Positions 21,711 through 56,384 of a stretch of DNA of 64,000 bases are shown here, piece by piece; within the stretch, counting starts at the first letter, position 1, and each line of letters begins with the position of its first letter. The notes beneath the pieces are model-generated. The model saw only the letters and a program-made list of their open reading frames with translations. It was not told where the DNA came from and ran no database searches. Origin of the DNA: Alphaproteobacteria bacterium (GTDB lineage Bacteria > Pseudomonadota > Alphaproteobacteria > RF32 > CAG-239); assembly GCA_015062535.1 (NCBI GenBank), contig SUUK01000001.1, forward strand, positions 399,055 to 463,054, written 5' to 3'. Position numbers and translations under genes: made by a program.

Positions 21711-23411
21711 ATGGAACAGAAAATAATCAGATGTGCAGTATACACTCGTAAATCAACAGAAGAAGGGTTAGACAAGGAGTTTAACACTTTAGAAGCTCAA
21801 CGAGAGGCTGGTGAAAACTATATCAAGAGCCAAAAACAACAAGGTTGGGTCTTGCTTCCACAGCATTATGATGATGGTGGTTATAGCGGTGGCACATTAA
21901 AACGTCCTGCCCTTCAAAGACTATTGTCTGATGTGCAAAATGGTAATATTGATATGATTGTTGTTTATAAAATTGACCGCTTAACCCGTTCTTTGCTAGA
22001 CTTTTCACAACTGATTAAAACGCTTGATGCACATAATTGTTCTTTTGTTTCTGTTACACAAAATTTTAACACTTGCGATTCCATGGGTAAACTGACCTTG
22101 AACATTTTATTATCGTTTGCCCAATTTGAACGAGAAGTAAGTGCTGAACGTATCCGAGACAAAATTGCCGCCACCAAGAAAAAAGGTATGTGGACTGGTG
22201 GTAGCGTTCCCCTTGGCTATGATGTTAAAAATAAAAAATTAGTAGTTAATCAGGAAGAAGCAAAAATAGTTCGCTATCTATTTGAAGAATATTTACGTTG
22301 TCGGTCAGAAGTTCAAGTGAGCAGAAACGCCAACGAAATGGGCTATCACTCTAAAGCTCGTAAAGTTCGTAATAGTCAAGGAGAAGTTGCCTTGTCTTTT
22401 AACCATGCGATGATTAATAATTTACTCCGTAATCCTATTTATATTGGAAAGATACCTTACAAAACAGAATTGTTTGATGGACTACACAAAGCGATAATTC
22501 CTATGGATTTGTGGAATCAAGTACAAGAATTAAAAAGGCTTAACCGCCGAGAACGTTTTGCCCCCTCCCGTTCTGTTAAAAATTCATTATTAAAAGGCCT
22601 TGTAGAATGTGAATGTTGCGGCACAATGACACCTACCCGCTGCAAACGAAAAAACAAATATTACGAGTATTATACTTCATCAAAAGCTGTCAAAGAAGGT
22701 CATCATTTATGTAGAACAGGAAGTGTTCCAGCAGGTGAGTTAGATAGATTTGTTTTGGATAAAGTTAGAAATGCATTCAAATCTCCAGAAATTATTCAAG
22801 AATTAGTGCATCAAATTAAACCGTACAAACCTGAGTATGGCGTAAGAGAAGTTTTTGACATTGTGCAGTCGGTTGATAAAGTTTTTGAGCATTTTGAACC
22901 GGCAACATTACAGTCAATCATAAAACAACTTGTTGATAAAGTCATTATACACAAAGGCAAAGTTGTCATTCGATTTAACAGTTTTGGCGTATCGTTGCTT
23001 GATGATAATATTAAATTTCAAAATGAGTTTAATAAAAAAACACTAGAATTTACTTATAATGTTACGTTGGCTCGTAAAAGAGGTCGAGTAAAAATAGTCA
23101 ATCCTCTTCCGTCAGAAACACCTGAAAAAGACGAGATTTTAATAAATGCCGTATCCAAAGCCTTTAAATGGCAAGATTTGTTGGAAAGAACAAATTTAAC
23201 AATTGCAGAATTAGCCCGAAGAGAAAAAATTGACAGGACATATATGGGACGCATTTTAAAACTATGTTCTCTTGCTCCCGAAATTATTAATGCAATTATA
23301 GAGGGAAAACAACCACGATTGCTTAATTTACAAGTCTTTACCAGAAACCAAATCCCTCTTTTATGGAGTGAACAACTTAAAAAATATGGTTTTGTTTACG
23401 ATTCGCACTGA
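21711..23411 (+). CDS. large serine recombinase (phage integrase, resolvase/invertase N-terminal domain + recombinase domain + zinc ribbon)
   Basis: N-terminus VYTRKSTEEG..QREA has the catalytic Ser/Arg context. It is followed by a recombinase domain and Cys clusters (CECCG..C) over 566 aa. Confidence 0.9.
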   Translation: MEQKIIRCAVYTRKSTEEGLDKEFNTLEAQREAGENYIKSQKQQGWVLLPQHYDDGGYSGGTLKRPALQRLLSDVQNGNIDMIVVYKIDRLTRSLLDFSQLIKTLDAHNCSFVSVTQNFNTCDSMGKLTLNILLSFAQFEREVSAERIRDKIAATKKKGMWTGGSVPLGYDVKNKKLVVNQEEAKIVRYLFEEYLRCRSEVQVSRNANEMGYHSKARKVRNSQGEVALSFNHAMINNLLRNPIYIGKIPYKTELFDGLHKAIIPMDLWNQVQELKRLNRRERFAPSRSVKNSLLKGLVECECCGTMTPTRCKRKNKYYEYYTSSKAVKEGHHLCRTGSVPAGELDRFVLDKVRNAFKSPEIIQELVHQIKPYKPEYGVREVFDIVQSVDKVFEHFEPATLQSIIKQLVDKVIIHKGKVVIRFNSFGVSLLDDNIKFQNEFNKKTLEFTYNVTLARKRGRVKIVNPLPSETPEKDEILINAVSKAFKWQDLLERTNLTIAELARREKIDRTYMGRILKLCSLAPEIINAIIEGKQPRLLNLQVFTRNQIPLLWSEQLKKYGFVYDSH

Positions 23412-25673: not shown

Positions 25674-26675
25674 ATGAAAAAAACAGCAGAGTTCGTTTCG
25701 CTCGGACATCCGGACAAAACGGCCGACTATATTTCCAGTTATATCCTTGACCGTATGATCGCCCAAGACCCGGACGTAAAATACGCCGTTGAGGTTATGG
25801 TCAAAGACAACACCGTCGTGTTAGGAGGCGAAATCAAAGGAAAAGTTGTCCTATCAGATGTCAAAGAGTTCGTTAAAAATGCCCTGAGAGATATCGGTTA
25901 TGATGAAAAATACGCCGAAGTTTGGGGCAAAAATGCCATAGATGTTCGTAAAATCGAAGTCATCAACCTCATCGGTCAGCAGTCAGCAGACATCAACCAA
26001 GGCGTAGTAGCCAATGGTTGGGGCGACCAAGGTGTATTTGTCGGTTACGCTTGTAAAGGTGAAGGCTTGATTAACCGAGAGCTTTATCTCGCTCGTACCC
26101 TTAACAATGCCCTTTATATTAAGGCTCGTCAAAGCAAAAACCTTGGAATTGACATTAAAACACAGATTACCTTAAACGACTACGGCCGAATTGAAACGGC
26201 TGTCGTTGCCATTCCGATGAAAGAACCGGAAGATTTAACAGATTTTATCATTGAAACACTCGGAGAAAAGCCCGACAACATCATTGTTAACGGCACCGGA
26301 AGTTTCAAATTGCATTCCTCCATCGCAGACTGCGGCATTACCGGTCGCAAATTGGCCTGCGATTTTTACTCTACTGCCTGTCCGATCGGTGGTGGCTCGC
26401 CTTGGACTAAAGACGGCAGCAAGGCAGATGTAACCCTGAACATCTATGCTCGCCGTTTAGCTCTTCGTTATTTGGAAGATAACGACGAATGCTTTGTCTA
26501 TCTCTCCTCCTGCATCGGTCGAGCCGAACTGCCCAGTGCAGTTGTTAAAACAATCAAGTCAGGTGTCGAGACAAATACCGCCATCTCGGTGGCCAAAACC
26601 CCAATTGAACTGGCCGAAGAATTGGATTTAACAAAGCCGGTTTTCGCCCGTTTATGTCGAAATGGTTTGATATAA
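25674..26675 (+). CDS. divergent, shortened S-adenosylmethionine synthetase (MetK-like) encoded by phage
   Basis: Aligns with bacterial MetK across its length. Matching segments include SLGHPDKTADYIS (GHPDK), SADINQGV, GWGDQGVFVGYA (GAGDQG), DIKTQIT, ADCGITGRKL and IGGGSPWTKDGSKADVT. The catalytic His, Asp and Lys residues are conserved. At 333 aa it has lost part of the C-terminal domain. Confidence 0.75.
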   Translation: MKKTAEFVSLGHPDKTADYISSYILDRMIAQDPDVKYAVEVMVKDNTVVLGGEIKGKVVLSDVKEFVKNALRDIGYDEKYAEVWGKNAIDVRKIEVINLIGQQSADINQGVVANGWGDQGVFVGYACKGEGLINRELYLARTLNNALYIKARQSKNLGIDIKTQITLNDYGRIETAVVAIPMKEPEDLTDFIIETLGEKPDNIIVNGTGSFKLHSSIADCGITGRKLACDFYSTACPIGGGSPWTKDGSKADVTLNIYARRLALRYLEDNDECFVYLSSCIGRAELPSAVVKTIKSGVETNTAISVAKTPIELAEELDLTKPVFARLCRNGLI

Positions 26676-27260: not shown

Positions 27261-28529
27261 ATGGAGAATTACATGGAATTTAATGAAAAATATCCTACCG
27301 AAAAGCTCATCCCATATGCCCGAAACTCTCGGACACATAACGATGAACAAATCGCCCAAATTGTGGCAAGCATTAAGGAGTTCGGTTTCACGAACCCAAT
27401 CCTGATTGGAGATGATGATGTTATAATCGCCGGTCATGGTCGCCTTATGGCCGCACAACGTCTTGGCATGACAGAGGTTCCGGTCATCAGGTTGCCTCAC
27501 TTAACCGAAACACAACGCCGGGCCTTGGTCATTGCCGACAATAAGATTGCTCTGAATGCCGGATGGGATGAAGAGATGCTCCACCTTGAAATGGAAGAAC
27601 TCTCGGAATTGAACTTTGATTTGAACCTGCTTGGGTTTAACCCTGATGAGTTGAATGAAATCCAATTATTCGGTGAGGAAAAGTCGTCCGGTAACACAGA
27701 TGATGACGAAGTTCCGGAAGCACCTGAGGAAGCCATCACAAAACGTGGCGACATTTGGCAACTGGGCCGACACCGTCTGATTTGTGGCGATACCACCATG
27801 ATAGATGACGTTAAAAAGCTAATGCAGGACGAAGTCGCCGATATGATTTTCACAGACCCTCCATATAATGTGAACTATGGTTCCACCATGAAAGACAGCA
27901 TACGCTATCATGCCGGTTCACTCGGTGGCCGAAAGATTATGAACGATAACCTTGGCGAAGGTTTTGCTCAGTTCCTGACGGATAGCTTATCCAATATGAT
28001 GATGTATTGTAAAGGTGCGGCCTATGTATGCATGAGTTCATCTGAACTGCACACCCTTTATAACTCGTTCATCAATGCCGGTGGCAAATGGTCGACCTTC
28101 ATCATTTGGAAAAAGAACACCTTTACCCTTGGCCGAGCTGACTATCAGCGACAATATGAGCCTATTCTTTACGGTTGGAATGCCGAACAAAAACATCATT
28201 GGTGTGGTGACCGGGATCAGGCAGACGTTTGGGAATACAATAAACCGGTCAAAAACGACTTACACCCGACAATGAAGCCGGTTGAACTGGTGGAAAGAGC
28301 TATAAATAACAGCTCTAAAATCGGGAATATCGTTTTAGATGGTTTCGGAGGCTCCGGCTCGACGCTGATTGCGTGCGAAAAGACGGGTCGTTCTGCCCGA
28401 TTAATTGAGCTAGATCCGAAGTTTTGTGACGTCATCATCAGGCGTTGGGAGGAATATACCGGTAACAAAGCCCAACTTATTGAAAATAAAGCAGAAATAA
28501 TCGAAAATGATGCAGAATTAACTGGATAA
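27261..28529 (+). CDS. ParB-like nuclease domain fused to beta-class N6A/N4C DNA methyltransferase
   Basis: N-terminal ParB/Srx fold (GHGRLMAAQRLG) is followed by a methyltransferase with DPPYN (motif IV) preceding LDGFGGSGST (motif I). Length is 422 aa. Confidence 0.85.
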   Translation: MENYMEFNEKYPTEKLIPYARNSRTHNDEQIAQIVASIKEFGFTNPILIGDDDVIIAGHGRLMAAQRLGMTEVPVIRLPHLTETQRRALVIADNKIALNAGWDEEMLHLEMEELSELNFDLNLLGFNPDELNEIQLFGEEKSSGNTDDDEVPEAPEEAITKRGDIWQLGRHRLICGDTTMIDDVKKLMQDEVADMIFTDPPYNVNYGSTMKDSIRYHAGSLGGRKIMNDNLGEGFAQFLTDSLSNMMMYCKGAAYVCMSSSELHTLYNSFINAGGKWSTFIIWKKNTFTLGRADYQRQYEPILYGWNAEQKHHWCGDRDQADVWEYNKPVKNDLHPTMKPVELVERAINNSSKIGNIVLDGFGGSGSTLIACEKTGRSARLIELDPKFCDVIIRRWEEYTGNKAQLIENKAEIIENDAELTG

Positions 28530-35513: not shown

Positions 35514-36671
35514 CTATAAAGGTTCAACATCCGAAGATAATAGGTCTGTATATTTTTGATAAGTATATATTTGTCCCCATTTTTTTTCGGAATTATTTAC
35601 CAAAATCCCTAAGTCAATTAAATGATTTAAGGATTTTATGACGGTTGGTTTTGTACTTCCTATCATATTGATAATTTCAGAAACGGTAAGCATAGGTTTC
35701 TTTTGAAATGCTGAAAACACTTTCAAAGCAGATTCTGATGCTCGACCGAGAGTTTTTATCTGCTCAACATCTGCTGAAAAGATATTTTGAATATTTATAA
35801 GTGTTTTTTTAGCATCATTTGCCGTTTCAATAACACCTTCTAAAAAGAATTTAATCCAATTTTCCCAGTCTCCATCTTTACGAACACCATTGAGAGCATC
35901 ATAATACAGGGTTCTATTCTTTTTGAAGAATAAACTCAGGTATAAGAAAGGAGAATCCAGCACACCTTTTACACATAAGAAAAATGTAATTAAAAGACGA
36001 CCAAGTCTTCCATTTCCATCAAGAAATGGGTGAATTGTTTCGAACTGTACATGGATAAGAGCAGCTTTGATTAAATTTGGAATATTATCTTCATCATTCA
36101 TAAAAATTTCCAAATCTCCTAAAACAGACATGAGTTTTTCAGGAGGAACAGGCACAAATCGAGCATTACCAGGTCGTGTTCCACCAATCCAATTTTGGGA
36201 TGAACGAAATTCTCCAGGAAGTTTTGTTTTTCCCCTAGAGTTAGTAAGAAGTATTTTATGAATTTCACGAATAAGACGTAACGACAACGGAAATCCTTCT
36301 TTGATGCGTTGCAACCCATGATTTAATGCTGCCACATATGAAGATACTTCTGATGCATCTGCAACAGGAACACCTTGTGTTTGTTCTGATTCATATCTTA
36401 AAAGATCATCCAACGTTGATTGTGTCCCCTCAATTTGTGATGATAATACAGCTTCCTTACGGACATACATATAATTCAGAACAGAAGGATCTATTGTTGC
36501 TTCAACAACACCGTTAAGTTCTCCGATGGATTGATTAGCTTTTTCTAATAAAACAGATACCTCTGATAAATCAATATCAGGTTTTGGTGGTAATGGATTA
36601 GGAATAAAGGCTTGATATGTTTCAGATGTTACTGAGCATTTCACTAAAGTTCCTTGAATATCACGTTTCAT
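35514..36671 (-). CDS. Fic-family protein (class II, N-terminal inhibitory helix), cargo gene
   Basis: Canonical FIC motif HPFLDGNGRLGRLL, inhibitory motif SSQIEGT ([ST]xxxE[GN]) N-terminal, and a C-terminal winged-helix region. It is on the opposite strand between portal and prohead protease and has lower GC. Confidence 0.9.
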   Translation of the reverse strand: MKRDIQGTLVKCSVTSETYQAFIPNPLPPKPDIDLSEVSVLLEKANQSIGELNGVVEATIDPSVLNYMYVRKEAVLSSQIEGTQSTLDDLLRYESEQTQGVPVADASEVSSYVAALNHGLQRIKEGFPLSLRLIREIHKILLTNSRGKTKLPGEFRSSQNWIGGTRPGNARFVPVPPEKLMSVLGDLEIFMNDEDNIPNLIKAALIHVQFETIHPFLDGNGRLGRLLITFFLCVKGVLDSPFLYLSLFFKKNRTLYYDALNGVRKDGDWENWIKFFLEGVIETANDAKKTLINIQNIFSADVEQIKTLGRASESALKVFSAFQKKPMLTVSEIINMIGSTKPTVIKSLNHLIDLGILVNNSEKKWGQIYTYQKYTDLLSSDVEPL

Positions 36672-42391: not shown

Positions 42392-42582
42392 AAACAGTGG
42401 AAGGTTATCAGGCTTGGGAGGTTTTGCTTAAACTTTCTGAGCCTGACTTGAAAACGGCTTTTGAAATTGCTCAAAACCTTGGATTTGACATGGCAATAAT
42501 GACAGAACTCTTACCCACAGCCATACATGGCATGAAAGAAGGAATACATGGGAGCAGCAAAGAAACTATCCATCAGACTTGA
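41858..42582 (+). CDS. tail assembly chaperone G-T fusion made by programmed -1 frameshift (putative)
   Basis: A -1 frame ORF (42208..42582) overlaps the 3' end of G. The A-rich run GCGAAAAAACAAA at 42338-42350 in the overlap is the candidate slippery site. Confidence 0.4.
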
Positions 42583-45166
42583 GGCAGTTGGCGGTGATAA
42601 AGTCCGTCAGGAGTTTAAGTCCATTGGGACGGACGGCACAAAGGCTTTTCGTCAGATTACGAACGTCATTACACCGGCCAATGACAACCTGAAAGTCATA
42701 AATGAAACGGCCAAAACCTTTAATGGCGTACTAAAACAAGCGGCAGGTCTTGCCGGAGCCTACCTCGGTTTACGTGGTTTAACCTCAACATTTAAGTCAA
42801 TTGTCGGAGTTAATGCCGAATTTGAAAGATTATCAGGTTCATTAAAAACTGTGACCGGTTCGGCAAAAGCGGCAAAGGAAGCATTTTCTTTAATTGAAGA
42901 CTTTGCCACATCAACCCCGTATCAACTTGATGAAATCGTTGATAGCTTTATCCGATTAAAGGCGATGGGCTTGGAACCCTCAATGGAAGCCTTAACCTCT
43001 TATGGTAATACGGCATCAGCCTTTGGTAAGAACATCTTGGAGTTTGTTTCTGCCGTAACTTCTGCAACCGTTGGCGAATTTGAAAGACTGAAAACCTTTG
43101 GTATCAAAGCCAAAGTTGAAGGTGAATCAGTTAAGTTCATCTTCCAAGGCGTTACAACAGAAGTGGCTAAAAATGCAACCGAAATCGAACGATATTTGCG
43201 ATCTATCGGAAACATTAACTTCGGTGGAGCTATGGCTGAACAGATGAACACCATGGGCGGAACGATGTCAAACATTGAAGATGCCATGGCAAAAGTTGCC
43301 CGAACCATTGGTGAAAGCGGACTAAATGATGCCATTAAAGGTGTGTTGGAACAATTTAACACGCTTGTATCCGGTTCAAACAGTACCGCAAAATCTATCG
43401 GTGGTGCTTTGGCAACGGCTGTAAATGTAGCAGGCAAAGCCTTTTTTGCTTTGGCCAATAATATCGAACCGATTATCACACTTTTGACCGTTCGGTTGGG
43501 TGCAGCTGCTATCGTCAAAACTTGGACACTTCTTAAAGGTTCAGTTTTAGCTCTGAATGCCGCTCTTCTTGGAACCGGGACAGCTGGAGCTACAGCAACG
43601 CTCGGTCTTCGTATGATGTGGCAGGTTTCAAAACTGGCCGCCGTTCAGATGTATGCAACAACTGTTGCTGCCAATGTTTTGAAAGGTGCATTGGCTCTTC
43701 TTGGTGGTCCTGCCGGCCTTGTTTTAGCACTGGCTTATGGTCTTTATAAGCTCGTGGATAGTCACGATGTGGCAAAGCGTGCCGCCAATGATCATGCCGA
43801 CACATTGCAAAAACTCAAAGATCAAATGGCAGAAACCGTCAAGGAAACTTCGACTTATATGAATACTCTGTCGAAGAACCAAGCCATTGCCGAATGGTCG
43901 CACAAGCTAAAAATCGCAGAAAAGAACGTCAAAGACCTTGAAAAAGAGCTAAAAAACACCGGCGGTATCTCATTTTTCAAACGTCATGCTCCGAACTTTA
44001 TGCTTGATGAATACGAGATTTTTGCAAACGATTTGGCTGAAATCCTCTCTGAATCAAAGTATAACCTTGATGAGTATGAGAAAAAGGTTTGGGAACTGGC
44101 AGCGGAATATCCTGATTTCAAACCACAAGCTGATGCCATTCAAGAAAAGTTGTTGCTCTTAAAGGCGGCTCGACAAGATGCTTGGGATGCCCGAAAGGAA
44201 CTGGAATACATCAACAACCCGGAGCTTCGACCTAAAAAAGAACTGGAACAACAGACCGAGCAACTGCCGACCGTTGACACTTCGGCTTATGAGAAAAACA
44301 TAGAGGACATAAAAAAGAAAGTCTTTGAACTTCAGGAGCCATATGATCAGGCTATGCAAAAAGCGGCCGAATGGCGTGATAATGCTTTGGCGAACCTTGA
44401 CAGCACTAAGGCCGGGTATGAAGATTTCAAGGCTGATGTTAATCGTGTTTATGATGATATGGTCAAAAAAGCAAGTGATGCCGCTTTGAAAAGCTCAACC
44501 AATTGGAAAGACGGTCTCACTCGCAGTTTGCAAAGTTCATATGCAGATGTGACCGATATGGCAAAGGCAACTGAGAACATTGTAAAAAACTCTTTTACCG
44601 CCATGGAGGACACTCTGACCGAGTTCGTCATGACAGGCAAAGCCAGTTTTTCGGATTTTGTTAATTCTATTGTTGAAGGTATGGTCCGGATGGCCATTCA
44701 ATATGCCGTTATCAAACCCATCATGAGTGGGATAATGGGATACTTTGGCGTGCCTATGGCCCATACGGGAGGTGTAATTGGTACGGATACTTTATCTTCT
44801 CGGCAGATTAGTCCTGATGTTTTTGAAGGTGCTCCTCGCTATCATACCGGCGGTTTGGTCGGAGACGAAATCCCGATCATCGCAAAACGTGGAGAAACCG
44901 TCTTCACAAAAGGACAAATGGACGCACTTGGGACCGAGTTAAACTCAAAAAATCCCGTCAATGTCAATGTTAATGTTCACAATAACGCATCAGGCACAAA
45001 GGCTTCAGCATCTGCAAATAAAGATGCTCAAGGCAACGTGTCTATTGATGTGATTGTTGAGCAAATAGAAAGCACAATTGGTAAAAACATATCTAAAGGC
45101 GAAGGTTTATCGCCGATTTTAGAACAACGTTATGCCCTTAATCCGGCATTTGGGAGTTATCGATGA
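42548..45166 (+). CDS. tail tape measure protein
   Basis: 872 aa, Ala/Gly-rich and helical, with a central hydrophobic segment. Confidence 0.85.
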   Translation: MGAAKKLSIRLEAVGGDKVRQEFKSIGTDGTKAFRQITNVITPANDNLKVINETAKTFNGVLKQAAGLAGAYLGLRGLTSTFKSIVGVNAEFERLSGSLKTVTGSAKAAKEAFSLIEDFATSTPYQLDEIVDSFIRLKAMGLEPSMEALTSYGNTASAFGKNILEFVSAVTSATVGEFERLKTFGIKAKVEGESVKFIFQGVTTEVAKNATEIERYLRSIGNINFGGAMAEQMNTMGGTMSNIEDAMAKVARTIGESGLNDAIKGVLEQFNTLVSGSNSTAKSIGGALATAVNVAGKAFFALANNIEPIITLLTVRLGAAAIVKTWTLLKGSVLALNAALLGTGTAGATATLGLRMMWQVSKLAAVQMYATTVAANVLKGALALLGGPAGLVLALAYGLYKLVDSHDVAKRAANDHADTLQKLKDQMAETVKETSTYMNTLSKNQAIAEWSHKLKIAEKNVKDLEKELKNTGGISFFKRHAPNFMLDEYEIFANDLAEILSESKYNLDEYEKKVWELAAEYPDFKPQADAIQEKLLLLKAARQDAWDARKELEYINNPELRPKKELEQQTEQLPTVDTSAYEKNIEDIKKKVFELQEPYDQAMQKAAEWRDNALANLDSTKAGYEDFKADVNRVYDDMVKKASDAALKSSTNWKDGLTRSLQSSYADVTDMAKATENIVKNSFTAMEDTLTEFVMTGKASFSDFVNSIVEGMVRMAIQYAVIKPIMSGIMGYFGVPMAHTGGVIGTDTLSSRQISPDVFEGAPRYHTGGLVGDEIPIIAKRGETVFTKGQMDALGTELNSKNPVNVNVNVHNNASGTKASASANKDAQGNVSIDVIVEQIESTIGKNISKGEGLSPILEQRYALNPAFGSYR

Positions 45167-45645
45167 CAGTATATTTTCCACAACATCTGCCTTACCCGAC
45201 AACGGAAGGATATGCAATTAAACCCGGAGAAGCCATTGTGCGAACCGACATGGAATCAGGTCCAGCAAGACAAAGGCGGCGTTATACTCAAACGCCGTCT
45301 AAAATTTCGGTGCGGTGGGTGATGAACCGAGAGCAATTTTCTCTTTTCGAGGCTTGGTATAAATACCATGCAAAGGAAGGAGCCGAATGGTTTTACATCA
45401 CATTGCTTGGTGGTTTGGGCTTATTGGAGCAAGAAGCTCGCTTTACCCAACAGTTCGAGGCAAAACTCCTAAACGGCTATTTGTGGGAAATAACCTCTGA
45501 ACTTGAAATCCGAGATCGTCCGACCTTATCCGAGGGTGCATTAAACATTCTATTAGACTGCGATTACGATAAATTGGTCTTGGCCGTCAATCGCTTACAC
45601 GAATATGTCCATGTGACCTGTCCAAAACAAATAGAGGATTTATAA
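45163..45645 (+). CDS. minor tail protein, gpM-like
   Basis: 160 aa coupled to the tape-measure gene. Confidence 0.45.
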   Translation: MTVYFPQHLPYPTTEGYAIKPGEAIVRTDMESGPARQRRRYTQTPSKISVRWVMNREQFSLFEAWYKYHAKEGAEWFYITLLGGLGLLEQEARFTQQFEAKLLNGYLWEITSELEIRDRPTLSEGALNILLDCDYDKLVLAVNRLHEYVHVTCPKQIEDL

Positions 45646-45646
45646 C

Positions 45647-46483
45647 ATGAATATGGAAGAACGATTACAAGCCGTTGTGTCTCAGGCCGAGACTGACGGC
45701 TCCCTTTGGCATACGATAATTCATGGAAACAATGCCACATCTGTATCTACAGAAAACGGAAAAGTTCCATCTGTTGCTAAACAACTAAAAGATGTAAGAG
45801 ATGAATTAATAAATGGAGCGGCTGATTATTTGGGTTCATGTTTGCAAGCTAAAACAGAAACGACAGCTGTTCGGGACAATGCACTTGTGATAAAATCTCA
45901 AATAGAAGAGTTAAAAGCCGACACCCAAGAGTTTAGAAATACGGCAGAGAGCTATAAAAATATGGCTCAAACGACATTCAATTCGGTGTCATCCGCTGTA
46001 TCTCAAGGAATTGCTGATATCCAAACAGAAGGATCCACACAAATTTCACAGGTAAAACAGGCCGCCGCCGAACAAGTGGCAGAAGCAACAGCACAAGCAG
46101 ACAGAGCAGAAAATGCCGTCGACAGTAAATTAAATATTGATTGTTCAAATATAAATTTGAATAGCTTACTAAAAACCTGCAAATTTACATCTAATGATAA
46201 TGGAACAGTTATTAAATTTCCAACTATTTTAGCAGATAACACAGTAAGAATAATTATCGTTCAATTTGGAAAAATTGTTGTTAATGGCGATAGTCAAGCT
46301 AGTTTTACGTTCCCCGAAGCTTTTCCAACGGCAGTAATATCAACTCAAGCAACTTTCTATTATGGTTTTAATAATGGAAGCGATGCAGGATGTGGAGTTC
46401 ATTCGGTAACTTTAACTGGTGGAATTGCTCAAAATGGTTGCAATTGGCAACTTGGAATTGGGTGGATGGCAATAGGTTATTAA
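45647..46483 (+). CDS. tail fibre protein, paralogue 1
   Basis: N-terminus MNMEERLQAVVSQAETDGSLWHTIIHGNN is shared with three downstream paralogues. The C-terminus is unique. Confidence 0.6.
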   Translation: MNMEERLQAVVSQAETDGSLWHTIIHGNNATSVSTENGKVPSVAKQLKDVRDELINGAADYLGSCLQAKTETTAVRDNALVIKSQIEELKADTQEFRNTAESYKNMAQTTFNSVSSAVSQGIADIQTEGSTQISQVKQAAAEQVAEATAQADRAENAVDSKLNIDCSNINLNSLLKTCKFTSNDNGTVIKFPTILADNTVRIIIVQFGKIVVNGDSQASFTFPEAFPTAVISTQATFYYGFNNGSDAGCGVHSVTLTGGIAQNGCNWQLGIGWMAIGY

Positions 46484-46494
46484 GGATTTATAAG

Positions 46495-47301
46495 ATGAAT
46501 ATGGAAGAAAGACTTCAAGCCGTTGTGTTTCAGGCTGAAACAGACGGTTCGCTTTGGCATACGATAATTCATGGAAACAATGCCACATCTGTATCTACAG
46601 AAAACGGAAAAGTCCCGTCTGTTGCCAAACAACTAAAAGATGTAAGAGATGAATTGATAAACGGAGCTGCTGACTATTTAGGATCATGTTTACAGGCAAA
46701 GACTGAAACGACTGCTGTTCGGGACAATGCTCTTGTTATTAAATCTCAAATCGAAGAGCTCAAAACCGACACTCAAGAGTTTAGAGATACGGCCGAAAGC
46801 TATAAAAATATGGCTCAGACGACCTTTAATTCGGTGTCTTCTGCCGTTTCAAAGGGAATTTCTGATATTCAAGCCGAAGGTACAGCTCAAGTTTCTAACG
46901 TAAAAACAGCGGTGGCAGAACAAGTGGCTGAAGCAACTGCTCAGGCTGATAGAGCCGAAAATGCTGTTGACAGTAAGGTTGAAACCGACTTGTCAAATAT
47001 AACAAAAACTACTTTGTTTTCAAAAATGTTTACAACATACATCAATGGCACAACATGGTATCGGGTTTGGCCGGATGGATGGATAGAACAAGGTGGTGTT
47101 GCGGCAAAAGGCGGAAGTGTCAGCATTACATTCCCCAAAGCATTCAAAAATACAAGTTATACAGCTATCGCAACATCCATGGGAACAAACGGTGAAATTT
47201 ACGCTCAATGTATAAATAAAGTTTCTGCAACACAGATGAACATACATAATAGTGGCGGAAGTTCAAATTTACAAAAATCATGGTATGCATGTGGCTTCTA
47301 A
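46495..47301 (+). CDS. tail fibre protein, paralogue 2
   Basis: The first 160 aa or so are about 95% identical to paralogue 1. The C-terminus carries the WYRVWPDGWIEQGG motif. Confidence 0.6.
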   Translation: MNMEERLQAVVFQAETDGSLWHTIIHGNNATSVSTENGKVPSVAKQLKDVRDELINGAADYLGSCLQAKTETTAVRDNALVIKSQIEELKTDTQEFRDTAESYKNMAQTTFNSVSSAVSKGISDIQAEGTAQVSNVKTAVAEQVAEATAQADRAENAVDSKVETDLSNITKTTLFSKMFTTYINGTTWYRVWPDGWIEQGGVAAKGGSVSITFPKAFKNTSYTAIATSMGTNGEIYAQCINKVSATQMNIHNSGGSSNLQKSWYACGF

Positions 47302-47313
47302 AGAGGATTAATC

Positions 47314-48837
47314 ATGGCAAATATGGAAGAAAAACTTCAAGCCGTTGTCTCGCAGGCAGAGATAGATGGTTCAAAATGGCATTCAATTGTTCATGGCGAT
47401 GAAAATACGACAATTCAAACAGAAAATGGAAATGTTCCTACAGTAGCCAAGCAATTAAAAGATATTCGTGATGCGATAACCGGCGGTGTTTCTGATGTTG
47501 TAGCTGAGGCAGAAGCGGCTCGTGATGAAGCCATTGCTGCAAAAAATGCAACAAATCAGTTAAAGTCGCAGACAAATACGATTAAAACAGAAACAGCACA
47601 ATTAAAAGCGGATACTTTGGCCATCAAAAATCAGGCTATTGAAGTGTTTAATAACATATCAACAGCAACTGATACGTCTATTCTAAATATCCAAACAGAA
47701 GGAAATACCCAAATATCAAGTATCAAAAACACAGGAACAACACAGATCAGTACCATAAATTCTACTGCGACAACACAAATAAGTTCTATTAATTCAACAG
47801 GAACAACACAAGTAAACAGAGTTAAAACGGAAGCAAATAATCAAATTGCGTTGGCAACTGAACAGGCAAATCTTTCTAAATATTATGCCGAAGCCTGTGC
47901 TCCAACACCTCTTGGCTCTAAGTTAACGGTTCCTGGAAACTCAAAAGTTCCGGACGGATATGAGCCTGTTTGGTATAAAAATACAATTACCAGAGCAAGG
48001 TATCCGGACTTTTTTGAGCAATTAGTCGATACAAATTCTCTGGTATTGGTCACTGAGGACACATACGACAGTCAGGTTTCAACCTTTGGAATGTGTGCCA
48101 GTTATGTAAAGATTGATACAAATACCCTTATTTTACCACTATTAGTGAATTTTGGGCGTGGCGGTAATTTGGATCAGTTAGGTGGTGTTCAAAATGACCA
48201 ATTTCAAGGTCACTATCACATATCACAGGCTCGTCAGGATACATATGGTTCAGGAGATGGTGCTGGTCTTTATCCTACGAGTGGCTCAGACGAAGGCTTA
48301 AGACAAGATGGTCCCGACTTGAAAATCTTAAATCCTAAAACTGGTGCTCATGGAACTGCTCGATTTGGTGATGAAACTCGGCCAAAGGCTTACTATGAGC
48401 TAACTTATATCAAATGTGCGGACATTAGTCGACCTTTAAACTCGGAGGAAACTTCAGAAATACGAACACAATTTGCAAGAATTGAGACTCTTTTAGCAAG
48501 TATTCCTTATATTGTGGCAGAGCAAAAAGGACTAAACTGGTATATAAAATGGTCTAATGGGGTTTTAGAACAAGGTGGAATATATGGAAGTAGCTCTTCT
48601 TACGTAAAGGCTGATAGTTCAATCACACTAACTTTTAATAGTAGTTTTATTAATACCAATTACATATTTGTAAACACAGTAACTGGTAACTCCACTGCTG
48701 ATAGTGGTTGGTGTAGCGGTGCTTTTTTTGAAATCGAAGGAAAAAGAACAGCATCAAATATTATATTAAATACAGATGGTATTGCCTCAAATAGGGTTTA
48801 CCGAATGAATTGGTATGCACGAGGCTATTGGAAATAA
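47314..48837 (+). CDS. tail fibre protein, paralogue 3
   Basis: N-terminus MANMEEKLQAVVSQAE. It shares a roughly 250-aa N-terminal region with paralogue 4 and has a C-terminal NWYIKWSNGVLEQGG motif. Confidence 0.6.
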   Translation: MANMEEKLQAVVSQAEIDGSKWHSIVHGDENTTIQTENGNVPTVAKQLKDIRDAITGGVSDVVAEAEAARDEAIAAKNATNQLKSQTNTIKTETAQLKADTLAIKNQAIEVFNNISTATDTSILNIQTEGNTQISSIKNTGTTQISTINSTATTQISSINSTGTTQVNRVKTEANNQIALATEQANLSKYYAEACAPTPLGSKLTVPGNSKVPDGYEPVWYKNTITRARYPDFFEQLVDTNSLVLVTEDTYDSQVSTFGMCASYVKIDTNTLILPLLVNFGRGGNLDQLGGVQNDQFQGHYHISQARQDTYGSGDGAGLYPTSGSDEGLRQDGPDLKILNPKTGAHGTARFGDETRPKAYYELTYIKCADISRPLNSEETSEIRTQFARIETLLASIPYIVAEQKGLNWYIKWSNGVLEQGGIYGSSSSYVKADSSITLTFNSSFINTNYIFVNTVTGNSTADSGWCSGAFFEIEGKRTASNIILNTDGIASNRVYRMNWYARGYWK

Positions 48838-48848
48838 GGAATACTATA

Positions 48849-50348
48849 ATGGCAAATATGGAAGAAAGACTTCAAAGTGTTGTCTCTCAAGCTGAGAGCG
48901 ATGGTTCAAAATGGCATACAATTGTTCATGGTGATGAAGATACAACGGTCCCGACAGATCAAGGAAATGTTCCCACTGTTGCCAAGCAATTAAAAGATAT
49001 TCGTGAAGCGATTACCGGTGGTGTATCTGATGTTGTGGCTGAGGCAGAAGCAGCTCGTGATGAGGCTGTTGCTTCAAAAAATGCAACAAATCAGTTAAAG
49101 TCGCAGACAAATACGATTAAAACAGAAACCGCACAGTTAAAAGCGGATACTTTGGGTATCAAAAATCAAGCTGTTGAAGTCTTTAATAACATATCAACAG
49201 CAACTGATACATCTATTCAAAATATCCAAACAGAGGGCAACTCCCAAATATCAAGTATCAAAAACACAGGAACAACGCAGATCAGTACCATAAATTCGAC
49301 TGCGACATCACAAATAAGTTCTATTAATTCAACCGGAACAACACAAGTAAACAGAGTTAAAACGGAAGCAAATAATCAAATTGCGTTGGCAACTGAACAG
49401 GCAAATCTTTCTAAATATTATGCGGAAAGCTGTGCACCAGCTCCACTGGGGTCAAAACTAAGTGTACCTGCAAACACGAAAGTTCCTGATGGATATGAGC
49501 CCGTATGGTATAAAAATACGATTACAAGAGCAAGATATCCGGACTTTTTTGAACAGCTCGTGGATACGAATTACTTGGTTTTCACTGATGAAACAACATA
49601 TGACAGCCAAGTTTCAAGCTATGGTATGTGTGCCTCATATGTTAAAGTTGACGATGATACAGTTATTCTACCACTTTTGATAAACTATGCTCGAGGTGGT
49701 ACAACAGATAATTTAGGAACGGTTTTGAACGATCAATTCCAAGGACATGGACACCATGCTTATATTGAATGTGACCAATCTGGAGGTTCGGGATATCCAA
49801 AACCTTTGCCTGGAGCTTCTCGATCCATACAAAACACAGATAAATGGGTAACATATCCGATAGCGTATGGAAACAATGGTGCTCCAAGATATGGCGATGA
49901 AACCCGTCCTAAATCATATTATGAATTGGTTTACATTAAATGTGCTGATATTTCTCGCCAATTGACGAGTGAAGAAACCTCTGAAATCAGGACAACGCTT
50001 AGCCAAAAAGTAAATACAAATCTATCAAATTTCCCTTCTAACATAGATTATTGCATTGAAAACTATGTTGCCAGTAATGGAAATTGGTATCGGATTTACA
50101 AGTCAGGCCGCCTAGAACAAGGCGGTTTTTTTGGCGGTGGAACGAGTGCTTGGGCAAGTGTTGCAATTACATATTTAAAACCATTTAAGGATAACACTTA
50201 TCAATTATTTTGTTTAGGAAACTGGAGTGATGCAGGAAGTTCGTCTTGTAAGGTTACCGCAAAATCAACAACCGGAGCAACAATTACATATGCGAACAAT
50301 CTCTCATCAGTTCAATTATCAACTTGGCTTGCCACAGGCAGAAAATAA
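48849..50348 (+). CDS. tail fibre protein, paralogue 4
   Basis: N-terminus MANMEERLQSVVSQAE with a C-terminal NWYRIYKSGRLEQGG motif. Confidence 0.6.
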   Translation: MANMEERLQSVVSQAESDGSKWHTIVHGDEDTTVPTDQGNVPTVAKQLKDIREAITGGVSDVVAEAEAARDEAVASKNATNQLKSQTNTIKTETAQLKADTLGIKNQAVEVFNNISTATDTSIQNIQTEGNSQISSIKNTGTTQISTINSTATSQISSINSTGTTQVNRVKTEANNQIALATEQANLSKYYAESCAPAPLGSKLSVPANTKVPDGYEPVWYKNTITRARYPDFFEQLVDTNYLVFTDETTYDSQVSSYGMCASYVKVDDDTVILPLLINYARGGTTDNLGTVLNDQFQGHGHHAYIECDQSGGSGYPKPLPGASRSIQNTDKWVTYPIAYGNNGAPRYGDETRPKSYYELVYIKCADISRQLTSEETSEIRTTLSQKVNTNLSNFPSNIDYCIENYVASNGNWYRIYKSGRLEQGGFFGGGTSAWASVAITYLKPFKDNTYQLFCLGNWSDAGSSSCKVTAKSTTGATITYANNLSSVQLSTWLATGRK

Positions 50349-50359
50349 CTGGAGGAAAT

Positions 50360-50686
50360 ATGTTAGGTCAAAAATTAACAGAAGAAACTTATACAGAGGG
50401 AGCTATTTGGTGTAACGAAAACAATGCCCGTATTAACCCTGAAACATGGATTATTGAAAAAATCCCTGAGCCAACCCCCGAAGAATTAAAAGAAATTAAT
50501 AGAGAACTTCGAAATCAACTCTTAAGAAGTTCTGATGAATGGGGTGTTGCCGACAGACCGCAAACAGACATTGTAAAATTACATTTGGAATGGCGAGAGT
50601 ATTTAAGAAATTATACAAATACTGATAACTGGTGGGAAAATCCCCCATTAACTTATAACGAATGGGAACAAGAAAATGACAGATAA
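50360..50686 (+). CDS. tail fibre assembly chaperone (Tfa-like)
   Basis: RBS GGAGG, 108 aa. C-terminal ..LHLEWREYLRNYTNTDNWWENPP resembles the Tfa pattern ..W..YR..L.R.D....WP..P. Confidence 0.45.
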   Translation: MLGQKLTEETYTEGAIWCNENNARINPETWIIEKIPEPTPEELKEINRELRNQLLRSSDEWGVADRPQTDIVKLHLEWREYLRNYTNTDNWWENPPLTYNEWEQENDR

Positions 50687-51218
50687 CACGCTCTCTGAAG
50701 CATTAAAAGAGGCCTATGCATCGGCTCCAAGTGAAGTTATTTTATTGCACACCTTGGAGTTAAGGCATCCGGCTTTCATTGACGATAACGGAAATCAGAC
50801 TGCCATTCGTATTGTCAGGGATAATAAGAACTATACCTGCAGACTTGAAGATACGGCTCCGCTTAATCCGGGAGAGGAAGTTGAGTTTCAGGCGTTGGCA
50901 TTTGATTTGGAATTGCCGCCAGTTGAGGCTATACCAGTACCGGAGATTACTTTGTCCATCGATAACGTTTCAACAGAAATCATCAAATACTTGGACAGAG
51001 CCGTAGAAACACAGGATATGATCGAAATGACATATCGGCCATACCTAACCAATGATTTAAGCACGCCACAAATGGATCCGCCGATTACTTTGGTTATTAC
51101 TGAAGTTACAGCGGATATTTCCAAAATATCGGCCACAGCTCGCATGATGGACATCGGCAACAAGTCTTTTCCTGCTGAAAACTATACCGTTAAAAAATAT
51201 CCGGGATTATCAAGATGA
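50676..51218 (+). CDS. minor tail protein, gpL-like
   Basis: 180 aa preceding the NlpC/P60 (gpK-like) gene. Confidence 0.4.
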   Translation: MTDNTLSEALKEAYASAPSEVILLHTLELRHPAFIDDNGNQTAIRIVRDNKNYTCRLEDTAPLNPGEEVEFQALAFDLELPPVEAIPVPEITLSIDNVSTEIIKYLDRAVETQDMIEMTYRPYLTNDLSTPQMDPPITLVITEVTADISKISATARMMDIGNKSFPAENYTVKKYPGLSR

Positions 51219-51619
51219 CGCATTTTGCATTAAAATATATCGGGCGACCATGGATCGCCGGATCACAAGGCCCTGACAGTTTTGATTGTTGGGGATTTGT
51301 TCGTTATGTGCTGTTGCACGAATTTGGCCATGATGTTCCACCGGTCAACATTAATCCGAATAATTTAAGAGATGTCCTGCACGCCTTTAAGGTGGACTTG
51401 GCATTTCAAGCCTTTATTGAAGTACCGACACCTCAAAACGGAGATGTTGTTTTAATGAGGCAATCAAAAAATCCCGTTCATGCCGGGTTATGGTTAGACA
51501 TAGACGGTGGTGGTGTTTTGCACTGTGTTCGGGATAGCGGCGTTGTATTCCAAAATGTCCGATCATTAAACACTTGCGGTTGGTACCTTGATAGTTATTA
51601 TCGAGTGAAAGAAAGTTAA
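51215..51619 (+). CDS. NlpC/P60 (C40) cell-wall peptidase-domain tail protein, gpK-like
   Basis: Catalytic Cys in FDCWGFVRYV with downstream His residues. Length is 134 aa. Confidence 0.7.
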   Translation: MTHFALKYIGRPWIAGSQGPDSFDCWGFVRYVLLHEFGHDVPPVNINPNNLRDVLHAFKVDLAFQAFIEVPTPQNGDVVLMRQSKNPVHAGLWLDIDGGGVLHCVRDSGVVFQNVRSLNTCGWYLDSYYRVKES

Positions 51620-55090: not shown

Positions 55091-55363
55091 ATGAACAAAA
55101 CTGAATACGTTGCTGCTGTTGCTGAAGCTGCAGGAATGACAAAAGCTCAAGCTGCTATTGCAGTTGATGCATCAATTGCCGTAATCACAAAAGCCTTGAA
55201 AAAAGGTGAACCTGTTCAAATCACTGGTTTTGGTACATTTGAAGTAGCAAAACGTGCTGCTCGTACAGGTCGCAACCCTGCAACAGGTAAAGAAATCAAA
55301 ATCAAAGCTTCAAAAGCACCTAAATTCAAAGCAGGTGCTGTTTTGAAGAAAGCCGTAAACTAA
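55091..55363 (+). CDS. hupB: HU-family DNA-binding protein (host)
   Basis: MNKTEYVAAVAE..GFGTFEVAKRAARTGRNPATGKEIKI is HU-like. The gene has its own TTGACT promoter and RBS AAAGGAG. The ORF-track start at 55019 is rejected. Confidence 0.85.
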   Translation: MNKTEYVAAVAEAAGMTKAQAAIAVDASIAVITKALKKGEPVQITGFGTFEVAKRAARTGRNPATGKEIKIKASKAPKFKAGAVLKKAVN

Positions 55364-55430: not shown

Positions 55431-56384
55431 TTACAACAGGTCATTTAATAAATTCATACATTTAATTTTTTGTTGCATATTGGCTCGGCCATATACATTT
55501 AATGTGAAAGATACATTTTTATGACCCAAAATTTCGGATAGAGATTTAACATCAAACTCCGGGATTTCTATGGCTCGAACTGCGAAAGTATGCCGAATTT
55601 CATGAAACTTAACACTACGCAGTTTGTTTTTTTTGAGGAAACGAGCAAAAAACTGTCTGTATGTTCTTGGCTCTGTTGGTTTGGTTTTCCCTGTTAAAAA
55701 ATATTGATTAGGGTTATCAGAATAATATTTCTTTATTATATTTATCAAAAGCGATGGAAGAGGAATAGTTCGGCACGAACTTGCTGTTTTAGGTGCTCCA
55801 ATGTAAACATAAGAAGTTCCTTTTACTTTATCATAAATTCGCTGAACAGTTCTTTGAATTGTTATGGTCTTATCAATAATAGAGATGTCTCGCATTTGTA
55901 AACCACACAGCTCACCAATCCGAACGCCAGTAAATAACGCAACTAAAATACCTGCAGTACGGCGGTTCATTTTCATGTAGATGGACTGTATAAGAGCCAA
56001 TTCTTCATCTTTTGATAAAGAAATCACTTTTTTTATTCCCAAATCTTTAGGGTATTCAATTAGGTCCCAATTTAGCATAGGAATAACTTGTTCTTTATAT
56101 GCAAAAATAAGGCATAAGCGTAAGACAAGTATAATATCTCGAATTGTTTTTACTGTTAAGCCTCCTTTTTTATCAAGCCTACCTTCATTATAAAGCGTAT
56201 TGATATAACATTGTATATCAGCTTCGGTGATGCTTAATATTTTCTTTTTACCCATTGATGGAATCAAATGGTTTTCAGAAATTAAAACAAAGTTAGCATA
56301 AGTCGATGGTGTAATCATCGGTTGCTTTTGTGTTAACCATGTTTTTACTAAAGTTTTAAATTGGGTATTTTGAGTTATTTTCAT
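55431..56384 (-). CDS. tyrosine site-specific recombinase (candidate hsdS invertase)
   Basis: 317 aa with the HEIRHTFAVRAIE (HxxR) box and a C-terminal catalytic Tyr (NVYGRA). It is adjacent to the inverted hsdS cassettes and is AT-rich like the host. Confidence 0.85.
   Translation of the reverse strand: MKITQNTQFKTLVKTWLTQKQPMITPSTYANFVLISENHLIPSMGKKKILSITEADIQCYINTLYNEGRLDKKGGLTVKTIRDIILVLRLCLIFAYKEQVIPMLNWDLIEYPKDLGIKKVISLSKDEELALIQSIYMKMNRRTAGILVALFTGVRIGELCGLQMRDISIIDKTITIQRTVQRIYDKVKGTSYVYIGAPKTASSCRTIPLPSLLINIIKKYYSDNPNQYFLTGKTKPTEPRTYRQFFARFLKKNKLRSVKFHEIRHTFAVRAIEIPEFDVKSLSEILGHKNVSFTLNVYGRANMQQKIKCMNLLNDLL

Follow-up and report, generated by a model that had tools for sequence, protein, structure and literature searches.

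Four tail-fibre paralogues with a common anchor between the distal tail protein and hub genes of a lambda-like prophage from a gut alphaproteobacterium

The DNA analysed here is a 64-kb stretch from an alphaproteobacterium (the window, whose own positions serve as nucleotide coordinates throughout), and it carries a lambda-like siphophage prophage at about 21-55 kb. Within the tail region of this prophage, four genes for tail-fibre paralogues, F1 to F4, stand in tandem on the same strand between the gene for a 160-aa distal tail protein (DTP) and a gene of the DUF1833 family, and a small gene for a 108-aa protein closes the array. All results given below were obtained by computation from the sequence, from predicted models and from comparison with relatives. 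The genes of the locus are listed here with the evidence for each.

45163-45645, + strand: DTP, 160 aa (called 'gpM-like' in a preliminary description of the window); phrog_384 match, AlphaFold2 (AF2) model and Foldseek search
45647-46483, + strand: fibre F1, 278 aa, short; PF21882 match; tip at aa 203-278 (nt 46253-46480)
46495-47301, + strand: fibre F2, 268 aa, short; PF21882 match; tip at aa 193-267 (nt 47071-47295)
47314-48837, + strand: fibre F3, 507 aa, long; AF2 model and Foldseek search; beta tip at aa 402-505 (nt 48517-48828)
48849-50348, + strand: fibre F4, 499 aa, long; layout as in F3; tip at aa 419-498 (nt 50103-50342)
50360-50686, + strand: gene for a 108-aa protein, the probable chaperone of the F4-type tip; sub-threshold profile matches and co-occurrence with the tip
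50676-51218, + strand: predicted baseplate hub protein 1, DUF1833 (called 'gpL-like' in the preliminary description); PF08875 and phrog_396 matches

The fibre genes, their tips and the small downstream gene

All four fibre open reading frames (ORFs) are intact and full length, begin with the common sequence M(A)NMEE(R/K)LQ.VV.QAE.DGS.WH.I.HG, and are preceded by a Shine-Dalgarno-like AGGA or GGAGG. The preliminary description had placed four tandem fibre genes at these starts, between the 160-aa gene and the DUF1833 gene, and had read them as paralogues whose N-terminal module is shared and whose receptor-binding tips differ; the ORFs and the shared N-terminus bear this out. The common layout comprises an N-terminal anchor of ~50 residues, in which a helix ending in a conserved HxxxH motif precedes a beta-hairpin, a long coiled-coil shaft and a C-terminal beta-sandwich tip. 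F1 and F2 consist of anchor, shaft and tip, which is the design of F3 minus its central domain, and their anchor plus shaft is ~90% identical as protein. Over shaft residues 46-150 identity amounts to 90% for F1/F2 and 93% for F3/F4, while between short and long fibres the anchors are 67-93% identical compared with 30-52% for the adjoining shaft. The AF2 model of F3 comprises an anchor helix (residues 4-27), a hairpin (33-42), a coiled coil (44-195) modelled as one very confident single helix, a neck helix (377-395) and the tip (402-505). Repeats were found within the shaft sequence of both long fibres.

47731-47815, + strand: 33-nt (11-residue) in-frame repeats in the F3 shaft; the equivalent F4 array lies at 49269-49350

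The tips of the short fibres pass the gathering score of the PF21882 (Gp53-like_C) profile, which is 24.9 bits, with 30.3 bits for F1 (aa 203-278) and 35.1 bits for F2 (aa 193-267). F4 scores 15.5 bits (E 0.026), below this threshold, in an alignment that spans profile positions 4-84 of 84. The last 76 residues of F1 match the R2 pyocin fibre foot (6CT8/6CL6, E ~1e-6) and also gp53 of the Acinetobacter phage AP22 (4MTM), and the F1 tip is 40-47% identical to annotated Acinetobacter phage tail fibres. Among full-length F3/F4 homologues, 44 of 72 end in a PF21882 tip and 16 of 72 have an H-type lectin tip instead. Furthermore, the F3/F4 family profile matches AP22 gp53 (PDB 4MTM) over neck and tip (E 0.005), the best Foldseek match of the F3 model is the R1 pyocin fibre 6CL5 (prob 0.99, E 0.013), and BLAST matches of 29-40% identity connect the tips of F2, F3 and F4 type. 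The closest homologue of F3 is protein P0001, with 91% identity. Searches of F2 and F3 against the PDB with phmmer gave chance coiled-coil matches only and were disregarded.

Pairwise identity among the four tips is 19-31%. Each is a member of the AP22 gp53 / R-pyocin fibre foot family or similar to it, and on the strength of the PF21882, profile and fold matches they are probably divergent members of one receptor-binding fold family. The C-terminal domains had previously been called unrelated apart from a shared motif; this motif, W..W..G..EQGG, proves to be the first strand of the tip domain and appears in F1 as IVQFGK. The tips most likely bind a surface polysaccharide such as lipopolysaccharide, and the fibres are probably homotrimeric.

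The central domain of F3 and F4 (residues 196-376; nt 47899-48441 and 49434-49976) is conserved across the 72 homologues, with invariant residues that include PLG, VP.GY.P.W.KNTITR..YPDFF, ILP.L.N..R, DQ.Q.H.H and G.ETRP..YYEL.YIKC. Assignment to a tail-collar domain, considered from motifs seen by eye (LP.L.N..RG, DQFQGH.H, GDETRPK.YYEL.YIK), was unsupported, as there was no Pfam match in any of the 72 homologues and no PDB profile match, and the F3 model has low confidence over this part.

Comparisons of the ratio of nonsynonymous to synonymous substitution rates (dN/dS) gave low values for every gene. Over the shared parts, where synonymous divergence (dS) between paralogues is 0.6-1.0, the ratio is 0.056 for F1/F2 and 0.15 for F3/F4. 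Against orthologues it is 0.10-0.12 for F1 and 0.15-0.20 for F4 (0.066 for the F4 tip), and against locus L082 it is 0.065 for F2 and 0.12 for F3; the last 100 codons of the fibres give 0.07-0.2 against orthologues. By this measure F1 to F4 are all under purifying selection, and they are very probably four functional receptor-binding fibres. Four such fibres might give the phage a wide host range.

The small gene directly 3' of F4 has a GGAGG ribosome-binding site and, with a dN/dS of 0.085 against L084, is likewise under purifying selection. Its product weakly matches two tail fibre assembly families, phrog_188 (E 0.0076) and phrog_4912 (E 0.011). The first 83 related loci lacked the gene, and the database yielded five close homologues of the protein. 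Every copy found lies 3' of a fibre with an F4-type tip and 5' of the DUF1833 gene; the tips beside these homologues are 84% identical to that of F4 in L084-L087 (last 159 residues) and 94% identical as DNA in L088. The gene is absent from loci in which the last tip is of another kind. Since it occurs only with the F4-type tip and its product matches assembly families weakly, the gene behaves like one for a tip-specific chaperone and is not a demonstrable Pfam member. The earlier designation 'Tfa-like chaperone' goes beyond the profile support, which is sub-threshold only. The 108-aa protein probably acts as the assembly chaperone cognate to F4-type tips.

Recombination and copy number

The 5' DNA of the fibre genes is repeated within pairs, with 82 mismatches in 495 nt for F1/F2 (83% identity) and 134 mismatches in 870 nt for F3/F4 (85% identity). 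The preliminary description was right that pairs 1/2 and 3/4 repeat their 5' DNA; at 83-85% identity its term 'near-identical' is too strong. Identical stretches extend to as much as 62 nt in F1/F2 (at 45704 and 46552) and 89 nt in F3/F4 (at 47800 and 49335); when the mismatch positions were shuffled, runs this long arose 3 times and once, respectively, in 5000 trials. A four-taxon test was applied to F3, F4 and their orthologues in L082. A total of 224 sites supported orthology and 26 grouped the paralogues by genome; of the latter, 21 cluster in gene nt 300-500, a stretch that holds only 3 of the orthology sites. In agreement with the tract so delimited, dS is 0.20 for gene nt 180-570, which contain it, compared with 0.55 and 1.99 in the flanking segments.

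47614-47813, + strand: gene-conversion tract in the F3 shaft; F4 partner at 49149-49348; located by the four-taxon test

Gene conversion, suggested earlier from identical blocks, is thereby borne out by four-taxon incongruence, heterogeneous dS and over-long runs, and the sequence comparison places a localised tract of it in the F3/F4 shafts.

Copy number varies among relatives. About 135 related loci with both flanking genes have 1-3 anchor genes, and four copies were seen in the window only. Viral contigs anchored on the DTP gene carry one (e.g. L021-L027), two (L013-L018) or three (L001-L011) anchor genes, and among 64 species-representative genome loci with both flanks, 51 have one copy, five have two and eight have three. 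The sole short fibre of L082 joins an F1-type 5' 300 nt (97%) to an F2-type 3' part (78%), a chimera of the kind that recombination between tandem 5' repeats would produce. L088, with a DTP 99% identical to that of the window, combines F1 and an F2-like fibre whose tip differs with a single long fibre that bears the F4 tip, plus the chaperone gene, while L089 has F1 (98%) plus other tips. Anchor, shaft and tip give incongruent trees. F2 and fibre 1 of L001, for instance, have tips that are 74% identical, while the anchor and shaft trees place the N-terminal parts of the two on different branches.

Comparison with relatives shows that the conserved 5' parts act as the homologous stretches through which unequal crossing-over, tip swapping and gene conversion take place; recombination through them accounts for copy numbers of 1-4 and for relatives with different subsets and chimeras. 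These comparisons characterize the cassette as a recombination-prone host-range locus, and the earlier proposal that the fibres serve as recombination substrates for fibre swapping is well supported by the conversion tract and by chimeric or missing paralogues in relatives. The natural series of one to four copies documents array growth, shrinkage and part swapping by homologous recombination.

Many one-copy loci hold further genes without an anchor. In relatives of high G+C content (L060; also L028-L071 and L140-L165) one short anchor protein of 212-290 aa is followed by ~3.4 kb of other genes, and at L060:10510-14501 these encode two ~550-aa proteins in which RCC1-like GxNxxGQLGxG repeats are seen by eye. 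This suggests that L060-type loci follow an adaptor plus secondary receptor-binding protein (RBP) design and not one of tandem anchored fibres. Similarly, in the rumen relatives L122 (11329-14080) and L125 (11556-13079), genes that lack the anchor and have F2-like (gp53-type) tips come after a single anchored fibre, a layout that may represent branched assembly in those phages.

Proposed docking on the distal tail protein and competing explanations

The DTP gene overlaps the stop codon of the tape measure gene, and the AF2 model of its product has a beta-sandwich core followed by C-terminal helices at residues 124-132 and 135-159. This helical extension (residues ~124-159, nt ~45532-45639) carries the motif H146-x3-H150. 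The protein matches phrog_384, a virion structural protein family. Its best fold match is Sf11 gp17 (9OCC_C; Foldseek E 2.6e-6, TM score 0.57), which covers the whole modelled chain including the adaptor helix, and 9OCC_D follows at E 2.6e-5; lambda gpM (8IYK_E) is matched with prob 1.0 and a root-mean-square deviation of 2.4 over 72 columns. The sequence profile also matches 9OCC_C (E 0.0067). On its predicted fold, the 160-aa protein is therefore a distal tail protein of the lambda gpM / Dit type, and the earlier 'gpM-like' label was apt. On the other side of the cassette, the DUF1833 protein scores 131.5 bits against PF08875, matches the minor tail protein family phrog_396, and matches by profile Sf11 gp16 (9OCC_F, E 7.8e-5), which is baseplate hub protein 1. 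It is thus, by homology, baseplate hub protein 1 at the gpL position, so that 'gpL-like' holds for position and function.

Extension and anchor gene co-occur. Every relative with an extended DTP and enough downstream DNA has an anchor-bearing gene directly 3', and so the fibre genes, described earlier as inserted at this site, are not a peculiar insertion, since this site holds an anchor gene throughout the lineage. In L074-L077 the DTP ends at about residue 120, without the extension, and the DUF1833 gene is directly next. In the cultured Pseudomonas phages D3 and PS-1, whose orf21 and gp72, respectively, are homologues of the window DTP, there is an extension of different sequence and no anchor gene, and the DTP gene is followed by DUF1833. 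L109, considered as a counter-example with a DTP and no fibre, was set aside as a truncated prophage remnant. At L109:8432-10211 a 5'-truncated DTP gene adjoins a truncated serine recombinase and a small resolvase-like gene, and host polysaccharide-synthesis genes follow.

Both putative partners carry the HxxxH motif, located from the sequence and the predicted helices.

45598-45612, + strand: H146/H150 in the DTP
45710-45724, + strand: H22/H26 in the F1 anchor
46558-46572, + strand: H22/H26 in the F2 anchor
47380-47394, + strand: H23/H27 in the F3 anchor
48915-48929, + strand: H23/H27 in the F4 anchor

Both histidines are present in 127 of 160 DTP homologues, with H/N or N/H in a further 24, and the motif occurs in 102 of 105 fibre anchors; it is not present in DTP homologues without a cassette. 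That the paired motif marks a metal-mediated helix bundle is pure speculation.

Two solved structures bear on how the fibres might attach. In Sf11 three N-terminal helices of the tailspike form a bundle with a single DTP helix, placing six trimers on a hexameric ring (PMC12724387), and in phiTE a baseplate protein supplies the fourth helix that completes the long fibre's bundle of N-terminal helices (PMC11972413). An anchor profile built from the anchors of 27 loci matches residues 15-58 of the 793-aa phiTE fibre 9CUY_g (E 7e-4); as the genome annotation makes the Ig-rich 554-aa protein the other modelled fibre, this chain was taken to be the long one. The window thus combines both solved examples, in that its DTP is homologous to the Sf11 partner and its anchor to the phiTE partner. 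The phiTE-type N-terminal motif occurs in 321 phage records, Vequintavirinae-like and others. The window anchor was found in 140 clusters (50% identity). It almost always stands at the very N-terminus, in proteins 43-1694 residues long, with the exception of one high-scoring 3693-residue match without an aligned stretch. Some database proteins (P0253, P0260, P0310, P0353 and P0246) contain the anchor motif 2-6 times or internally, and these may be fused gene calls or repeated anchors.

By analogy with these structures, we infer that fibre trimers dock on the DTP helix in the Sf11/phiTE mode. A hexameric DTP ring, as in related solved tails, would carry the C-terminal helical extension as docking helix; the three anchor helices of a fibre trimer would bundle with one DTP helix, and one bundle per helix would give six docking sites per virion. 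The 108-aa protein would fold the F4-type tip. One shared anchor, with no branching domain found, implies parallel use of equivalent DTP sites. Since all four paralogues have the same anchor, they would compete for the six sites, and virions would carry mixtures of tips. We assign a probability of about 0.6 to the overall explanation of a fibre cassette whose products dock on the DTP. That virions actually carry mixtures of the four fibres is put forward only tentatively. An elaborated version, with parallel fibres on six DTP sites, an HxxxH-aligned bundle that possibly contains metal, and random tip mixtures as switchless bet-hedging on a plug-in socket, is equally doubtful. Were the socket version true, any tip recombined onto the anchor would be displayed at once, and this would account for copy numbers and tips that turn over rapidly in gut alphaproteobacterial prophages.

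Several observations weigh against docked parallel fibres as the explanation of the cassette. The homologies on which docking is modelled are weak in sequence (E 0.0067 for DTP-Sf11 and E 7e-4 for anchor-phiTE), the predicted models are of monomers, and the Sf11 bundle is held by salt bridges, not histidines (PMC12724387). D3 and PS-1 have a DTP extension of different sequence and no cassette, and branched assemblies seem to exist in the lineage, judging by L122, L125 and L060. As to the fibres themselves, F4 is sub-threshold for PF21882, F3 has no direct Pfam match, and the central domain is modelled with a predicted local distance difference test score (pLDDT) below 50 and has no family assigned. 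The 108-aa protein reaches 14.9 bits (E 0.023) against PF16778 (Phage_tail_APC), below the cut-off of 26.6.

An alternative that we regard as unlikely is branched assembly, in which a single paralogue would be fixed to the tail and would itself carry the rest, as in G7C, CBA120 and Klebsiella phages. Branching is common in multi-RBP phages (PMC6872550), and relatives exist in which a single 187-290-aa anchor protein is followed by anchor-less genes, some of them with gp53-like tips (L122, L125) or RCC1-like repeats (L060). In the window, however, the same anchor stands at the extreme N-terminus of all four proteins, F1 and F2 are anchor, shaft, tip and nothing more, and Pfam and PHROG scans with hidden Markov models (HMMs), within the sensitivity of such searches, returned no T4gp10-like or other docking domain.

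The shaft identities given above for the pairs F1/F2 and F3/F4 could also permit heterotrimers, with mixed-tip fibres as the result. Within each pair, however, tip identity is only 19-31%, tips of the gp53/pyocin type are homotrimeric in the solved structures 4MTM and 6CL6, and the cognate chaperone gene is tied to a single tip type, which leaves this arrangement a slim chance.

Slightly slimmer still is the chance that the paralogues are redundant or decaying duplicates, one fibre being used and the others being drifting copies or a reservoir of spare tips. Copy number does vary among close relatives, so that no one paralogue is indispensable to the phage lineage, and in L011 the middle copy is truncated to 127 aa. 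The search for inactivating lesions in the window found none; all four genes are full length with ribosome-binding sites, and dN/dS of shafts and tips, for paralogues and orthologues alike, is 0.06-0.2 at dS 0.1-1.2. Decay of the extra copies, named in the preliminary description as the outcome that would refute it, is therefore not what is seen, and its proposal to compare copy number among related prophages gave the range of 1-3 anchor genes reported above.

Programmed diversification or switching of tips, whether by a diversity-generating retroelement (DGR), an invertible segment or shufflon, or phase variation, shares with this locus the layout of a constant N-terminus and variable C-termini known from the Mu/P1 invertible fibre segments and DGR targets, and is nevertheless very nearly negligible here: the four genes lie on one strand, the sole inverted repeat found is a pair of 21-nt copies (81%) separated by 5 kb, the large prophage ORFs include no evident reverse transcriptase or invertase (not every ORF was scanned), mismatches on A are near base composition (43% vs 37% and 34% vs 37%), simple-sequence tracts are absent apart from the 33-nt shaft repeats, and promoter- and terminator-like sites are at shuffled background level. 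The recombinases detected lie at the left end of the prophage (21711-23411) and just beyond its right end (55431-56384), and nothing resembling an invertible fibre segment was found. Internal promoters or terminators separating the paralogues were likewise rejected, as their counts equal shuffled expectation. The suggestion of a switchable host range consequently finds no support, with no invertase, flanking inverted repeats, reverse transcriptase among the large ORFs, simple-sequence tracts, or excess of promoters or terminators; the recommended check for adenine-specific bias revealed no DGR-like excess.

Prophage setting and known systems

The prophage stands out from its surroundings by composition, with a G+C content of ~32% at the window ends and ~43% between roughly 24 and 55 kb. 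The 24-55 kb block encodes terminase, portal, protease, a lambda-E-like capsid protein, tube protein (PF18906), tape measure and a lambda-like tail tip (NlpC/P60, J-like), which identifies the element as a lambda-like siphophage prophage. The tail genes adjoining the locus are as follows.

42548-45166, + strand: tape measure protein, 872 aa; ORF just upstream of the DTP gene, in the same position in all related loci
51215-51619, + strand: NlpC/P60 tail protein at the gpK position; PF00877
51624-53846, + strand: gpJ-like central tail-tip protein; PF13550 and PF24801, phrog_31 and phrog_469

At the left end of the prophage lies the gene for a 566-aa large serine recombinase (21711-23411). At the right end lies an HU-like DNA-binding gene (55091-55363), and just beyond it a tyrosine integrase (55431-56384, - strand); a search for attachment-site repeats found no flanking direct repeats >13 nt around the prophage. 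A Fic/DOC-family gene (Fic_N plus Fic, with a weak helix-turn-helix) that runs in the opposite direction at 35514-36671 (- strand), with the portal gene on one side and the head-protease gene on the other, looks like a moron within the head module. In the early region, an S-adenosylmethionine synthetase-like protein and a fusion of a ParB N-terminal part with an N6-N4 DNA methylase (25674-26675 and 27261-28529) may together form an anti-restriction or methylation module.

The prophage proteins have homologues in metagenome-assembled genomes that derive from human, ruminant and rabbit guts and bear the labels Alphaproteobacteria, Rhodospirillales or 'Azospirillum sp. 51_20', and remoter relatives occur in Thalassospira, Magnetospirillum and other Rhodospirillales. 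The host is an uncultured gut or rumen alphaproteobacterium. Contigs of the prophage family binned as Holdemanella biformis (L107), [Ruminococcus] gnavus (L119), Lactobacillales (L091), Bacteroidaceae (L135) and Woesearchaeota (L147) probably reflect binning errors and not true hosts. A megablast comparison of the region with 50,697 phage records yielded nothing, and tblastn with F4 found one unannotated faecal contig as its sole match. To our knowledge, none of the phages related to the cassette-bearing prophage has been cultured.

In practice phages are limited chiefly by their host range; gut Alphaproteobacteria have not been cultured, and their phages have no experimental record. The locus offers a testable example of a siphophage with several receptor specificities, built from one anchor, a docking helix, exchangeable tips and a tip-linked chaperone. 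If the shared-socket model holds, the anchor and the DTP helix would form a simple module for multivalent phage engineering.

The order tape measure, DTP, hub 1, NlpC/P60, J-like is shared with lambda, D3 and PS-1. In lambda the tail-tip genes run H-M-L-K-I-J, the hub gene comes straight after the DTP gene, and fibres are encoded beyond J. D3 and PS-1 likewise have the DTP gene directly followed by the hub gene, with fibres after J, whereas the alphaproteobacterial lineage has the cassette at this junction. The Shigella siphophage Sf11 (PDB 9OCC) resembles the window in the DTP fold, including the C-terminal helix, and in gp16, the homologue of the DUF1833 protein. It differs in having a single RBP, the P22-like tailspike gp13, which by gene numbering is encoded beyond the hub genes and not at the DTP/hub 1 junction, in a large extra C-terminal domain of its DTP, and in a salt-bridge bundle, compared with HxxxH on both partners here. 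The long fibre of the Pectobacterium myophage phiTE (phiTE_241, PDB 9CUY chain g) has a homologous N-terminal anchor; however, it belongs to a myovirus baseplate, its fourth helix is donated by the sheath initiator and not by a DTP, and the rest of the fibre is a beta-helix and not a coiled coil with a gp53-like tip.

The receptor-binding foot is homologous to those of the R-type pyocin fibres (6CL5, 6CL6, 6CT8) and AP22 gp53 (4MTM). In pyocins, as in the lambda stf-tfa and P2 H-G pairs, a small tip-specific assembly gene lies directly downstream of the fibre gene, and the 108-aa gene is placed in the same way immediately 3' of its fibre. R-pyocins and AP22 differ in being contractile systems with single fibre genes and other N-terminal attachment, and the tips of the window are distant from the solved ones. 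Tandem RBP genes with modular N-termini and varying RBP number are known from K1-5, G7C, CBA120 and the Klebsiella KP32, Menlow and PhiK64-1 groups (PMC6872550), which resemble the window in tandem RBPs, modular attachment, exchangeable specificity parts and varying number. Those systems are modelled as anchor plus branches, with T4gp10-like domains and distinct short peptides (PMC6872550), whereas the copies in the window share one anchor and no branching domain was found. The locus does not overturn current understanding, in which modular multi-RBP phages and fibre anchors are well established; its components, namely Dit/gpM proteins that carry RBPs, N-terminal anchors, gp53/pyocin tips with chaperones, and modular multi-RBP phages, are familiar. 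Different from the described systems are the cassette between the DTP and hub genes, the presence of up to four full-length paralogues with the same anchor, and a conserved HxxxH on both presumed partners.

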